51,405 nucleotides of DNA from Myxococcales bacterium (GTDB lineage: Bacteria > Myxococcota_A > UBA9042): positions 1-51,405 of the forward strand of contig JBBISH010000033.1 in NCBI GenBank assembly GCA_037441385.1. Direction: 5' to 3'. A program made the position numbers. Shown in pieces: positions 12,001 to 15,000 of this stretch (position 1 is the first letter of the stretch; every line of letters begins with the position of its first letter).

Positions 12001-15000
12001 CGGCGACTTTGTCGCGCCCCACCGCCAACATGCCGGCCGACGGATCCAAGCCAACTACGGTGCACTGCGGGATGCGGTCGGCGACCATCAGCGCCAAATC
12101 CCCAGTCCCAGTCGCCAGATCCAGGATACGGGCGCCCGGTTTTGCCTGCAACGCGTCCACGGTGCGCCGCCGCCAACGTTGGTCGATGCCAAACGTCATC
12201 AAGCGATTCATCAGGTCGTAGCGCGCGGCGATGCCATCGAACATGGCGCCGCTGCCGCCGGCTACACCGGTCGCGGCCAGGGGTTGCCCAACCGGGCTGT
12301 TGGCTGAGTGGGTCACGGGGTCCGCCTTGTCCTGTCGAAGCGATGGGATCGCACACCGCTAGTTGGCGCGCCAAGAAAACCTTGAGCCCACGGTCATGCC
12401 GCGCCGCCGCGCTTGCCGTGGCCCACGTCGGCCTTGCGAGCGTGCAAGCGCATGTGCCCCTGCTGGATGCCTTCGCCGGCCAACGCCCGCAGTGCCGCCA
12501 AATTCGAGGCCAACCCCACTGCCGCCATCACCACGGCCAGCTCGCGGGCGCTGCCGGTCTGGATGATCTCCATCGCCGTGCGCACGCCCGGATGCGCCTG
12601 GGTCGATCCACCGACAGTGCCAATCGCCAAGGGCAGTTCCATGCTGCCGTGCAGGCCCGCCTCCGTGCGCCGCCAGGTCGCCAGCGGCCGGTAGTCCGCG
12701 CCCAAGCCAGCAAACGAGTGCGCCCCGGCCTCGATGGCGCGCCAGTCCTGTCCCAGCGCCACCGCGACCGCGTCGATGCCGTTCAAGATGCCTTTGTTGT
12801 GCGTCGAAGCGCGGAAGGGATCCAGCTCGGCAAAGCGACTGGCGCGGGCGATGCCGTCGGCCAACCGCTCGCCCCCCAAGAAATCACTGCCCACATCGCA
12901 CTCAACGTGGCAGATGCGCCGCAGCGGCGTGTTCGACAGGATGCGTAGGCCAATGTCGCCACCGACCCACTCGCGCATCAGCGGCGCCACGTGCTCGGCT
13001 ACCGTATCGACCACGTTGGCGCCCATGGCGTCGCCCACGTCGACATACAGGTGCACCACCATGATGCCGATTTCGGTGTCGAGCACCCGCGCGTCCAGGT
13101 CCAAGCAACCGCCGCCGCGGGCCACCATGCGCGGAATGGCCGCGTTGGCCACCGCGATGATCTCGTCGCGCCGCCGCTCGATGGTGGCCACGGCCTCTTC
13201 CACCTGGGGTACGTGGTCGAACTGCACCTGCGCGGTCATCACGCTGGCGGTGGCATCGCCGCGGAAGCCGCCCGTAGCCCGCACCATGCGCGCCGCGTTG
13301 CTGGCCGCAGCGACCACGCTTGGCTCTTCCACCACCATCGGCACGATGTAGTCGCGGCCATTGACACGGAAATTGAGGCCCAGCGCCATCGGCAGCGAAA
13401 ACGTCGACACTACGTTCTCGCTCATCTTGTCGGCGATGGCGATGTCCAAGGTGCCGCTCCGCAGGTACTTCTGCGACTCGGGCGAGAGGCCCAGTTGCAT
13501 GGCCACCTGCCGGCACCGCTCGGCCACCGACTTCTTGTAGAACTCGGGATAACGACTGGTGTACGGCGGCAACTCCTGCGGCCGCGGCACCGGCACGTCC
13601 AGGCCCAGTTGGTGCCCCAGATCGGCCAACTGCTCGGGCAATAGCGCTTGCGGACCGTCGCTTTTGGCGCGCGCCGGATCCGGGTGCACTTCGACCAGCA
13701 CCACATCGGCCCCCGCGGCCTTGCCCGCCAGCGCCAGCGGCACCACCAGATCGCGCCGCCCGGCCGCGTGCGACGGATCGACCGCCACGGGCATGTGCAG
13801 CGCATGATGCAGCAGGGCCACGGCACCCAAATCCAGCGTGTTGCGCGTCTCGGCGCCGATGCCCGCCACGCCGCGCTCGCAGAACATCACCCACGGGCAG
13901 CCGTGCACTAGCAAGTGCTCGCCCGCGCAAAGCCATTCCTCTACCGACGCGCCGCGGCCGCGCTTGAGCAACACGACCTTGCCCGTGCGCCCTACAGCGC
14001 CCAGCAGCGCGAAATTCTGCATGTTGCGCGAGCCGATTTGGATCACATCGGCAAAGGCGGCCACGGCCTCGACGTGCATCTCGCTCATCGCCTCGGTCAC
14101 CACGCCCAAACGCTGCTCGGCCGCGGCGTCGGCCAGCCACTGCAGCGCGGGTGTCCCGGCTCCGGCAAAACTGTAAGGCGACGTGCGAGGTTTGTAGGCG
14201 CCACCCCGCAGCAGTCGCGCGCCAACGGACGCCACCAGCTTGGCGGTCTCGCGAATTTGCTGCTGGGATTCCACGGCACAAGGGCCTGCAATTAGAACCG
14301 TTTCGCGGCCCAGCTCGACGAGGCCACCGGCGCGCGTGTGCAGCGACCACGTGCGCGGCATCGCGTCGACCCGCGGGTGCGCCGACTTGGGCTCGCGAAT
14401 CGCCGCCACACCGGGAATCGAACGAATGAGCGCGTGGGGCACCCGCGACGAGTGCGCCTCGACCTCGAGCAGCCCTGGTCCTTCCTCGCCGGTCAGCGGC
14501 CGCGTCCACAGGCCAAGCCCTTGCAGCGCGGCGGCGACGGCAGGCGTGTCGGCATCAGGGGCAAGTACGATGATCATGCAACCTCGGAACTCGCGCGGCA
14601 CCGCGTGCCGCTGGACCAGTGTTGGATGCGCGCCACAGGCCCGACCACCCGGGCCCGCGCCATCCTACGCGTGTCGCGTGGCCAGCGCATCTGCAATCGC
14701 GCGCAGGGCTTCGCGCTGGGCCGACTCGGGCAGTTGGTTCAAGGCGTCTTGCGCCTGCTGCAGCCGGGCGGCAGCCACGGCCCTTGCGGTGGCCAGGGCT
14801 CCGCTCTGCCGCACGCCCGCCACGATGGCCGCCACGGTGGGGCCTTCGGGCTGTTGGCCGGCCAGGGTGGCACTGCGCACAGCGGCTACGGCTGGCCGCA
14901 ACTCGGGATGTTGCCGCAAGGTTAGGGCCAAGGGCAGGGTGATCTTGCCCTCTTTCAGGTCGGCCAAAAGCGACTTGCCGGTCGCGGCTGGCGCGCCTTC

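Follow-up and report, generated by a model that had tools for sequence, protein, structure and literature searches.

The gene at 12394..14577 on the minus strand of the window (the whole stretch of DNA that was analysed, 51,405 nt) encodes, as far as can be read from its sequence, a genuine three-domain protein, in which an N-terminal regulatory domain is followed by a metal-dependent DAH7P synthase (DAH7PS) and a class II HMG-CoA reductase (HMGR). The explanation that is favoured here, with moderate confidence, is that of a three-domain bienzyme of one origin, which would set the entry enzymes of the ring and tail supply in a 1:1 ratio under the control of the men operon. The open frame spans 12394..14601 on the minus strand, and the ATG at 14577, preceded by GAGG, gives a product of 727 amino acids plus the stop. 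In this same frame Pfam places DAHP_synth_1 at residues 91-322 (215 bits) and HMG-CoA_red at residues 351-713 (316.8 bits), and NCBIfam places NF006421 at 1-323 and TIGR00532 at 340-713; both enzymes do stand in one uninterrupted ORF, as the initial annotation had claimed, although its two-enzyme layout had overlooked the third, regulatory domain. The parts, all on the minus strand, are the ferredoxin/ACT-like regulatory domain (residues 1-85, 14323..14577, predicted from NF006421 and an N-terminal profile), the type I-beta DAH7PS (beta/alpha)8 barrel (residues 91-322, 13612..14307, PF00793 and TIGR01361), the Pro-rich linker, whose sequence varies while its length stays constant (residues 323-339, 13561..13611), and the class II HMGR (residues 340-727, 12397..13560, PF00368, TIGR00532 and the structure 1qax).

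Conservation was read from an alignment of 30 fused proteins with mutual identity of 68-90%, where the catalytic residues of both enzymes, previously left unchecked one by one, are all present and invariant (30/30). From these intact residues both enzyme halves are predicted to be catalytically competent. The dN/dS ratio is 0.03-0.22 across the three domains (6 pairs), and all domains of the fused protein are under purifying selection. An assembly or frameshift artefact was ruled out, since the fused frame recurs in 19 independent assemblies. Among the sequencing runs, DNA of the fusion occurred only in what is probably the source sample, a metagenome of the subsurface, with no RNA run listed. 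Scans for Rfam families and tRNAs gave no matches in the window.

The barrel matches the type I-beta DAH7PS family PF00793 with 215 bits (cut-off 25.5) and TIGR01361 with 312 bits (cut-off 267.75), whereas the KDO8P_synth model reaches 93.9 bits, below its cut-off of 314; in the PDB search the DAH7PS structures score 248 bits versus about 70 bits for the KDO8PS structures, the closest matches being 1vs1, 1zco and 1rzm. The identity of a KDO8P synthase was rejected on these scores. The residues C100, H270, E296 and D307, together with K129-P130-R131-S133, align with those of solved DAH7PS enzymes, and C100, K129-P130-R131, H270, E296 and D307, the metal ligands and the PEP motif, are invariant in the 30 fused proteins; the corresponding ligands of the Thermotoga enzyme are C102/H272/E298/D309. 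The model NF006421 covers query residues 1-323 with its positions 1-325 of 338 (336.8 bits, cut-off 335), and a profile of 21 N-terminal segments matches residues 1-91 of 1rzm/3pg9, 1vr6 and 4grs with E-values of 4e-9 to 6e-9 (5.8e-9 for 1rzm), so that residues 1-85 are assigned, as a prediction, to the Thermotoga-subtype ferredoxin/ACT-like regulatory domain. The protein shares with the Thermotoga maritima DAH7PS (1rzm/3pg9) the two-domain layout over residues 1-323, query 93-320 corresponding to chain 95-322, as well as the metal ligands and the KPRTS motif, and differs from it in the complete class II HMGR after the barrel and in the motif of the N-terminal domain. The latter domain has, in the clade of men-linked and fused enzymes, its own invariant motif (LQGLGLW, HS[AS]), with LQGLGLW clade-specific and invariant in the 30 fused proteins, while the trp-linked paralogue retains the Thermotoga-like G..GNDR stretch. 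Tyrosine is the effector of the Thermotoga DAH7PS; because the conserved motif differs, the effector of the fused protein need not be tyrosine. No chorismate mutase (CM) domain was found by Pfam in the fused protein, which places it outside the CM-fused DAH7PS.

The linker has a mean identity of 35%, and the distance between the anchors on its two sides is 27 residues in 24 of the 30 fused proteins (range 23-31). Behind it, the HMGR half matches the class II model TIGR00532 with 395.1 bits (cut-off 259.95) and stays far below the cut-off of the class I type model TIGR00533 (38.5 bits vs 441.8); in the PDB it finds class II structures with E-values down to 6e-99 (1qax), against 3.5e-4 for the human class I enzyme. 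The best solved relative is the Pseudomonas mevalonii HMGR (1qax/4i4b), whose catalytic residues are given as E83/K267/D283/H381 in section 3.2 of PMC12292504. Their equivalents by alignment, E418, K595, D611 and H708, are invariant in the 30 fused proteins, as are the motifs DAMGAN and GTVGG. The catabolic P. mevalonii enzyme is specific for NADH and has Asp146 at the NADH-determining site (D154 in R. pomeroyi), whereas the fused protein carries Ile481 at this site, Arg483 two positions on, and about 28 C-terminal residues fewer; Ile481 and Arg483 are invariant in the 30 fused proteins and shared with the stand-alone HMGR of genus g5. The Asp of the NADH-dependent ('degradative') class II subgroup is thus absent, and the NCBIfam/NCBI name of the fused protein, 'hydroxymethylglutaryl-CoA reductase, degradative', is not to be trusted at face value. 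The probable reductant for mevalonate formation is NADPH, or either cofactor.

The initial annotation had located the fusion between a HepT-like polyprenyl synthase and menG/menF/menD/menH, and this order was recovered, with all genes on the minus strand. The first gene of the operon encodes a HepT/octaprenyl-like, long-chain polyprenyl diphosphate synthase (PPS; 14665..15690, start approximate; PF00348, with TIGR02748 as the best NCBIfam match), in which DDxxD motifs are visible. Downstream of the fusion lie the demethylmenaquinone methyltransferase gene menG/ubiE (11549..12316; PF01209, NF001244 above cut-off), a menF-like isochorismate synthase gene (10143..11552; PF00425, with TIGR00543 the best match, below cut-off), menD for SEPHCHC synthase (8473..10359, the listed ORF being probably longer than the gene; TIGR00173 above cut-off with 287.9 bits), and menH for SHCHC synthase (7602..8537; TIGR03695 the best match, 179.5 bits, below cut-off). 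The four men genes are adjacent and co-oriented, and menA and menB are found in the genome, as in a classical (isochorismate) menaquinone operon. A sigma-70-like promoter match (TTGACG-17-GATAAT, 10/12) lies 5' of the polyprenyl synthase gene at 15884..15912, and terminator-like hairpins follow menH at 7477..7499, both on the minus strand and both as consensus matches only; two sigma-70-like sites were found where 0.9 were expected, and the two hairpins are fewer than the 7.4 expected in shuffles, which makes them weak evidence.

The order PPS-fusion-menG-menF-menD-menH is common to the window and six other genomes (G028, G007, G006, G003, G004 and G001), and in G008 it runs through menF up to menD, at the contig end. 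The gene menG follows the fused gene in 17 of the 19 fusion genomes; two of the 19 (G014 and G019) have the fusion at a place outside the men operon, where it is kept nevertheless. In 7 fused loci and 6 unfused ones the polyprenyl synthase stands 5' of the DAH7PS gene, and an unfused, ancestor-like operon PPS-DAH7PS-menG(-F-D-H) is present in G022, G016, G014 and G036. Sister genera have a stand-alone DAH7PS in their men operon, to which the DAH7PS half is orthologous, and the men-linked and fused enzymes make up one clade (SH-aLRT 98), separate from a second paralogue that sits in the trp operon and was lost together with it. A second DAH7PS gene elsewhere in the genome, reported in the initial annotation, was found again as the PF00793 gene on contig C27. 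The trp-linked DAH7PS and TrpB are both absent from the same 10 fusion genomes, and in 10 genomes retaining chorismate synthase the fusion is the sole PF00793 gene, so that it would have to make DAH7P there; the predicted activity of this half is the conversion of PEP and erythrose-4-phosphate to DAH7P. Within the family, 35 of the 37 genomes retain chorismate synthase and only one has a prephenate dehydratase, which leaves menaquinone as the constant chorismate sink.

The genome itself (6.6 Mb, 221 contigs, 90.9% complete) has the fusion as its only PF00368 match, in agreement with the claim that this is its only HMGR gene. For the dependence of its isoprenoids on the fused HMGR there are further grounds: DXS, IspH and IspG were not found in the genome at this completeness, and MK, MDD, IDI-2 and FPPS are on contig C31. 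Since the MEP genes are absent, the HMGR half must feed all isoprenoids and not the quinone tail alone, and is therefore not a quinone-dedicated enzyme; with the lower mevalonate pathway present, mevalonate must be made. No HMG-CoA synthase was found with PF08540, TIGR01835 and TIGR00748 in the 37 family genomes, where only a FabH-like gene responded. This negative, which bears on the source of HMG-CoA, was counted against the favoured reading. An HMG-CoA lyase is present.

The bearers of the fusion are uncultured Myxococcota of a single group, from soil and the subsurface. The family search (37 genomes, 14 genera) gave the fused frame in 19 genomes of six genera, g1 (8/10), g2, g3, g4 (6/6), g8 and g12; it is full-length and free of stops in 18 of them, that of the window included, and interrupted by contig ends in one (G025), which reproduces the earlier count of 17 other genomes plus one cut by a contig end. 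The class search (107 genomes) gave the same 19, all within family f1, and the fused frame in none of the 70 genomes of 17 other families, again as stated before. The HMGR half alone, noted earlier for three genomes of one genus, is indeed present in all three genomes of g5, laid out as HMGR-menG and PPS-DAH7PS-menF-menD-menH in separate pieces. A DAH7PS remnant was searched for 5' of the g5 stand-alone HMGR and none was seen; g5 may represent either the pre-fusion state or a secondary split. The fusion and a stand-alone men-operon DAH7PS occur together in G014, a bin with contamination of about 5%. Among 1.84 billion protein representatives, one of the best 150 matches covers both halves, and the fused form makes up a single 50%-identity cluster, which argues that it arose once. 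The fused halves are monophyletic in both the HMGR tree (SH-aLRT 95) and the DAH7PS tree (99), built by quick searches without bootstraps, and no secondary split was seen within the fused clade of the HMGR tree; the sequences indicate that the fusion has a single origin. A literature search returned no paper on a DAH7PS-HMGR protein, its results being metabolic-engineering, plant-transcriptome and unrelated papers, and a DAH7PS-specific search returned only the Prevotella paper PMC8408635.

According to the favoured explanation, an ordinary myxobacterial HMGR would have landed between the men-dedicated DAH7PS and menG, with subsequent loss of the stop codon. DAH7PS would open the shikimate route to chorismate, from which menF, menD and menH would then build the naphthoquinone ring; HMGR would convert HMG-CoA to mevalonate as the sole isoprenoid entry here, and the polyprenyl synthase at the operon head would use the isoprenoid units to build the quinone tail. 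In this way the enzymes that open ring and tail supply would come from one message and in one chain, in a 1:1 ratio and under men-operon control. The coupled supply of both precursors, proposed in the initial annotation, appears the best reading and has gained in the orthology with the men-linked DAH7PS, the separate trp paralogue, the position of menG after the fusion in 17/19 genomes, and an HMGR~MenF protein in another family; it has lost in that HMGR feeds all isoprenoids, the fusion stands outside the men operon in G014 and G019, g5 lives without it, and HMGR fuses widely. Co-regulation, and any benefit of the 1:1 ratio or of contact between the domains, would follow from the same reading. 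The last two of the unfavourable points also feed a neutral explanation, for which we keep a distinctly smaller but still appreciable likelihood: chance adjacency and loss of a stop would have joined two halves that act independently, with nothing coupled beyond the operon, and the chain would have persisted through being harmless. How easily adjacency turns into fusion is seen in the Myxococcota family f25, where HMGR lies inside the men operon as PPS-menG-[HMGR~MenF]-menD, fused in G399 and split by one TAG in the same frame in G267. Class II HMGR has, moreover, many other partners in metagenomes of other lineages (GHMP kinase, thiolase, IDI-2, DMAT, SQS/PSY, polyprenyl synthase and isochorismate synthase), which makes fusion as such weak evidence of a special link, and the linker sequence is poorly conserved. 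The retention of the fused frame over 19 genomes and six genera, with close pairs at a dS of about 0.8 or higher, speaks against neutrality, as do the constant linker length, the survival of the undivided fusion where it has left the men operon, and the lack of secondary splits seen inside the fused clade.

The same short linker of fixed length would suit an allosteric bienzyme, in which the HMGR dimer also serves as an oligomerisation or effector module gating DAH7PS, perhaps with the reverse effect as well, and the N-terminal domain senses a quinone-pathway metabolite instead of tyrosine. This is judged improbable, although type I-beta DAH7PS have repeatedly gained N- or C-terminal domains for allostery, and the N-terminal motif is distinct from the stretch kept in the trp-linked paralogue. 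A precedent is the Prevotella nigrescens DAH7PS, where, as PMC8408635 describes, the C-terminal CM dimerises the enzyme and allostery is reciprocal; class II HMGR is in turn, according to PMC12292504, an obligate dimer with the active site at the interface. The HMGR cannot be merely regulatory, being the only one of the genome, and its role as a purely regulatory domain was rejected on this ground. There is very little probability that one half has been misread, with HMGR working degradatively (mevalonate to HMG-CoA), the DAH7PS activity lost or changed, or the ORF an artefact: the 'degradative' name, the lack of a detected HMG-CoA synthase and the presence of HMG-CoA lyase would fit, but the need to make mevalonate, the invariant Ile481, the 10 genomes where chorismate depends on the fusion, the margin over the KDO8PS structures and the recurrence of the frame in independent assemblies all oppose it.

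A stronger form, likewise judged improbable, is a hub matching the fluxes of two pathways, where HMGR dimers would clamp pairs of DAH7PS barrels, each site would tune the other, and the N-terminal domain would respond to the quinone pool or to an intermediate late in menaquinone synthesis. If so, the supply of precursors for both parts of the respiratory quinone would change in step, the f25 HMGR~MenF would solve the same problem a second time, and a general, undescribed need to co-control ring and tail supply would exist in mevalonate-dependent, aromatic-amino-acid-auxotrophic Myxococcota. Enzyme fusions usually stay within one pathway, while DAH7PS~HMGR joins the entry steps of the shikimate and mevalonate pathways, which do not meet before the finished quinone; along with HMGR~MenF and the men-operon HMGR in two families, it offers a natural Rosetta-stone link between the supply of the menaquinone ring and tail. 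The series of domains recruited by type I-beta DAH7PS, which serves as a model of how allostery evolves, also gains a new partner in HMGR, and the protein may provide a compact, naturally occurring module for the engineering of vitamin K2 and further prenylated aromatics. A further point is the unusual physiology of an uncultured family that keeps the shikimate pathway mainly for quinone, lacks the MEP pathway and shows no HMG-CoA synthase that could be recognised.

Several known proteins resemble the fusion in part. The CM-fused DAH7PS, with N-terminal CM in Geobacillus/Bacillus/Listeria and C-terminal CM in Prevotella/Porphyromonas, likewise combine a type I-beta barrel with another enzyme domain that is itself catalytically competent and forms dimers. 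The form with C-terminal CM is nearest in layout (PMC8408635), and the structures 5j6f and 3nvt are among the PDB matches of the barrel. Their partner, which binds the feedback effector, acts in the pathway of the barrel itself, whereas the fused protein has a mevalonate-pathway partner and an N-terminal regulatory domain; the likeness is one of principle only. In the Enterococcus faecalis MvaE (7m1z, E 1.8e-77), an acetoacetyl-CoA thiolase fused to class II HMGR and cited in PMC13001223, the HMGR is also the C-terminal half of a bifunctional protein, but its partner is a mevalonate-pathway enzyme and not the first enzyme of the shikimate pathway. IspDF likewise carries two non-consecutive steps on one chain, with coupling that is regulatory or stoichiometric and not by substrate channelling (PMC13001223); its halves belong to one pathway (MEP), those of the fused protein to two pathways converging only in the final product. 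A further relative in kind is the f25 HMGR~MenF (proteins P0277 and P0133), also an HMGR in a men operon fused to a ring-branch enzyme. Its partner is MenF, its HMGR is N-terminal and 49% identical, and it is, in a different family, a case independent of DAH7PS~HMGR. The 45 other Myxococcota HMGR loci have no men gene within 8 kb, which weighs against the favoured reading. No mevalonate-pathway genes were found beside the HMGR~PPS, g5, f25, G014 and G019 loci.

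The fused gene at 12394..14577 (-), almost certainly a real feature, lies in an uninterrupted open reading frame of 12394..14601 (-), whose start codon ATG at 14577 has GAGG on its 5' side and gives a product of 727 aa. Both Pfam domains, which the initial annotation had placed on one ORF among the menaquinone (men) genes, were re-obtained, namely DAHP_synth_1 at residues 91-322 (215 bits) and HMG-CoA_red at residues 351-713 (316.8 bits); residues 1-323 match the entire 338-position NCBIfam model NF006421 with 336.8 bits vs the cut-off of 335, and residues 340-713 match TIGR00532 with 395 bits. 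By Pfam/NCBIfam, the operon begins with a HepT/octaprenyl-like polyprenyl diphosphate synthase, PPS (ORF 14665-16077 (-), gene start probably near 15690), followed by the fusion, menG/ubiE (11549-12316 (-)), menF (10143-11552 (-)), menD (8473-10359 (-)) and menH (7602-8537 (-)). The G+C content is even over the fused gene and its neighbours (0.67-0.71), with a promoter-like match 5' of the PPS gene and terminator-like hairpins 3' of menH, both being consensus matches only. The remaining genes of the window have no relation to quinones, and scans of the window returned no Rfam families or tRNAs. A 1392-aa ORF at 1230-5408 (-) carries five Dicty_CTDC repeats, a similar protein being found near the fusion in the genome G019, and the ORFs at 28664-33754 (-) (1696 aa) and 33837-35948 (-) (703 aa) match no Pfam family.

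The nearest solved structures of the DAH7PS part are of type I-beta DAH7PS, Aeropyrum 1vs1 (E 1.6e-72), Pyrococcus 1zco and Thermotoga 1rzm (E 2.5e-67), the latter aligned in register (query 93-320 with chain 95-322), and KDO8P synthase structures reach only ~70 bits. A profile built on 21 N-terminal segments, drawn from the fused proteins and from the men-linked and trp-linked ones, matches residues 1-91 of Thermotoga DAH7PS (1rzm/3pg9, 1vr6 and the 4grs chimera; E 4e-9 to 6e-9), which identifies residues 1-85 as a predicted ferredoxin/ACT-like regulatory domain of the Thermotoga subtype. Thermotoga DAH7PS is a tetramer inhibited by tyrosine. When the window protein is aligned with 29 fused homologues of full length (68-90% identity), the metal and PEP site is invariant (C100, K129-P130-R131-S133, H270, E296, D307). 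The HMGR part is nearest to Pseudomonas mevalonii HMGR (1qax, E 6e-99), and its equally invariant E418, K595, D611 and H708 correspond to E83/K267/D283/H381 of that enzyme, named in section 3.2 of PMC12292504. Both halves are likely to be active. In the linker (residues 323-339) the mean identity is only 35%, with the length fixed at 27 residues between anchors in 24 of the 30 proteins (range 23-31). Nei-Gojobori dN/dS, calculated for six pairs from a set of 14 fused genes, ranged over 0.04-0.22 in the regulatory domain, 0.06-0.11 in DAH7PS and 0.04-0.07 in HMGR, with dS of 0.8-1.4 being near saturation.

PMC12292504 reports Asp at Ruegeria position 154 (P. mevalonii 146, a numbering offset of 8) in the NADH-dependent class II HMGRs and Tyr or His at that position in NADPH users, the substitution D154K making NADPH usable. 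The equivalent residue of the fused protein, placed by the alignment with solved HMGR structures, is Ile481, followed by Pro482-Arg483, all invariant among the 30 proteins, and we infer that the HMGR half uses NADPH or both cofactors. The NCBIfam and NCBI records name the fused protein only 'HMG-CoA reductase, degradative', a label that is unsupported because of Ile481 in place of the Asp of NADH-dependent enzymes.

The source names of the homologues indicate a lineage in uncultured Myxococcota/'Deltaproteobacteria', and DNA of the locus was found in a single sequencing run, a subsurface metagenome that is probably the source sample. The family f1, to which the window's genome G000 belongs, comprises 37 genomes of 14 genera, and the fused frame is present in 19 of these genomes, in six genera (18 complete without stops, G000 counted, and G025 broken by contig ends); the two genomes of the genus g1 without the fusion are 61% and 69% complete. 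The class search matched 19 of 107 genomes, every one in f1, and none of the 70 genomes of 17 other families, in agreement with the 17 other genomes, one contig-cut copy and 0/70 outside the family counted initially. Among 5.8 billion clustered proteins, 29 full-length clusters (719-766 aa) with both Pfam domains and three shorter pieces are followed only by stand-alone HMGRs of ~400 aa, and among the best 150 of 1.84 billion 50%-identity representatives one (P0014) spans query 1-717. In quick maximum-likelihood trees, from which the incomplete gene of G025 and the short duplicates at loci L005, L013 and L015 were omitted, the fused halves form one clade for both HMGR (38 rows; SH-aLRT 95) and DAH7PS (33 rows; SH-aLRT 99), the fused HMGR clade being sister to the stand-alone HMGR of the genus g5 (SH-aLRT 99) and both being nested in ordinary stand-alone Myxococcota HMGRs. 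The monophyly in both trees, the confined distribution and the one covering representative show a single origin of the fusion.

The order PPS - fusion - menG - menF - menD - menH is shared by the window with G028, G007, G006, G003, G004 and G001, and up to menD at a contig end with G008; fusion - menG (- menF) with shorter flanks was found in G027, G029, G023, G026, G032, G024, G005, G025 and G002, so that menG follows the fusion in 17 of the 19 genomes. The other two genomes, G014 and G019, carry the fusion at different sites, where its neighbours are genes without annotation, a glycine-cleavage gene or nadA. The G014 bin contains both a fusion outside the men operon (L030, C6) and a full PPS-DAH7PS-menG-menF-menD-menH operon (L050, C1), whose stand-alone DAH7PS groups with those of other genera; since contamination is ~5%, the two forms possibly belong to two organisms. 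In the genus g5 these genes are distributed over two loci, PPS - DAH7PS - menF - menD - menH and HMGR - menG; its HMGR starts at the point where the linker ends in the fusion, no DAH7PS remnant was seen 5' of it, and the genus may represent either the pre-fusion arrangement or a secondary split.

In sister genera without the fusion (G022, G016, G036), and also at a second locus of G014, a stand-alone regulatory-domain DAH7PS stands between PPS and menG, with menF/menD/menH adjoining. The men-linked stand-alone enzymes group with the fused halves in one clade (SH-aLRT 98), separate from a second DAH7PS paralogue, which lies 3' of trpB in 7 of 9 loci examined (in G000, on C27 after trpD, trpC and trpB); the remaining two (G001:C2, G007:C131) form a pair of their own on long branches, with no trpB in the 6 kb covered. 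Proteins of the clade of men-linked and fused enzymes carry in their N-terminal domain an invariant motif of their own, ALQGLGLW...HS[AS]...PGV, and the trp-linked paralogue retains the Thermotoga-like G..GNDR; from this divergence we infer a different effector, for which a late menaquinone intermediate would be a guess. Ten of the 19 genomes with the fusion have it as their sole PF00793 gene (G023, G024, G026, G028, G032, G003, G005, G006, G008, G019), and the same ten lack TrpB at E<=1e-60; the control search for this was successful, with E 6e-221 in G029 and 1.5e-199 in G004, only a 36% paralogue in G028 and no match in G003 and G019. Chorismate synthase is present in 35 of the 37 f1 genomes and prephenate dehydratase in one, the latter model being positive in 14/14 control genomes. 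Thus, the family retains the shikimate pathway without the phenylalanine branch and with an optional tryptophan branch having its own DAH7PS, and its constant chorismate consumer is menaquinone; it appears to be auxotrophic for phenylalanine and in many cases also for tryptophan. In G000, which is 90.9% complete, the PF00793 model matches just the two DAH7PS genes and no KDO8P synthase, which is unexpected for diderm Myxococcota.

The fused gene is the sole PF00368 match of G000, as annotated initially, and a search with the fused protein returned no second HMGR in the 19 fusion genomes. The DXS, IspH and IspG models have no match in G000, and contig C31 groups mevalonate kinase, diphosphomevalonate decarboxylase, IDI-2 and a short-chain prenyl synthase; menA is located on C78 and menB on C7. 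Therefore, as had been proposed, isoprenoids depend on the fused HMGR, which excludes a quinone-only role for it. The HMG-CoA synthase models PF08540 and TIGR00748 have no match in G000, and TIGR01835 exceeds its cut-off in none of the 37 f1 genomes; weak matches belong to a FabH-like gene. Since HMG-CoA lyase (NF004283) is above cut-off in 26/37 f1 genomes, including G000 (C97), and the synthase was not found, leucine catabolism is a candidate HMG-CoA source; the lyase is found in 0/3 genomes of g5, which has HMGR.

An independent parallel exists in another Myxococcota family, f25: proteins with HMGR fused to isochorismate synthase have matches in 2 of its 9 genomes, of two genera, the only ones among 401 sampled of the phylum. 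P0133 (866 aa) exceeds the TIGR00543 isochorismate synthase cut-off (249.5 vs 224.75 bits), and P0277 (862 aa) has 42% identity to it in that half. Both loci show the order PPS - menG - HMGR - menF - menD, with HMGR~menF in one frame without stop in G399 (L108:2656-5241 (+)) and with one TAG between HMGR and menF in the same frame of G267 (L109:8735-11197 (+)). No men genes were found within 8 kb of HMGR in 45 other Myxococcota loci (Nannocystaceae, Enhygromyxa and others). Given these loci in addition to the f1 fusion, HMGR has moved into a men operon on at least two occasions in Myxococcota and has twice been fused to a ring-branch enzyme; among the comparative evidence, this argues most strongly for a functional link.

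The selected function is probably, on balance, a coupled supply of ring and tail precursors. This part of the initial annotation is favoured by the men context in 17/19 genomes, the men-linked DAH7PS ancestry and the f25 parallel, and is weakened by the service of HMGR to all isoprenoids. Because both are made in one chain from one message, the enzyme committing carbon to chorismate and the one committing HMG-CoA to isoprenoids would be equal in number; the same message would also encode the synthase setting the tail length, three enzymes of the ring branch and the methyltransferase of the last step. Class II HMGR is an obligate dimer (PMC12292504), and type I-beta DAH7PS is assembled via its barrels, with recruited domains that pair and gate active sites (PMC8408635); the linker, being short and of fixed length, would keep HMGR dimers near the barrels, where cross-talk may be possible. 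A neutral fusion of operon neighbours is rather unlikely; the G267/G399 pair, differing by one TAG, shows that adjacency becomes fusion cheaply. Still less probable is an allosteric bienzyme as the main point. No published description of the DAH7PS-HMGR architecture was found in the literature searched; it combines known kinds, a domain-decorated type I-beta DAH7PS and a bifunctional HMGR, and is notable for bridging two pathways.

Pfam searches of long HMGR-containing representatives revealed many different fusion partners of class II HMGR: GHMP kinase (on either side), thiolase, IDI-2, aromatic prenyltransferase (Trp_DMAT), squalene/phytoene synthase (SQS/PSY), polyprenyl synthase together with SQS/PSY (in a protein of 1453 aa, HMGR~polyprenyl synthase~SQS/PSY) and the chorismate-binding enzyme of P0133. 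Other f1 genera (G022, G017, G018, G021, G036, G015, G016) have a very divergent HMGR (47-51% identity, a long branch in the HMGR tree) in open frames of 785-936 aa, with no mevalonate or men genes near these loci. In 6/7 of them a synthase part lies 3' by tblastn, and in G022 the 831-aa ORF at L019:5120-7615 (-) has HMG-CoA_red followed by polyprenyl_synt (Pfam), the synthase half looking short-chain, of IdsA/GGPP/FPP type. Fusions of class II HMGR are frequent among metagenomic proteins and include P0126, P0130, P0134, P0136, P0141, P0145, P0168, P0176, P0182 and P0211.
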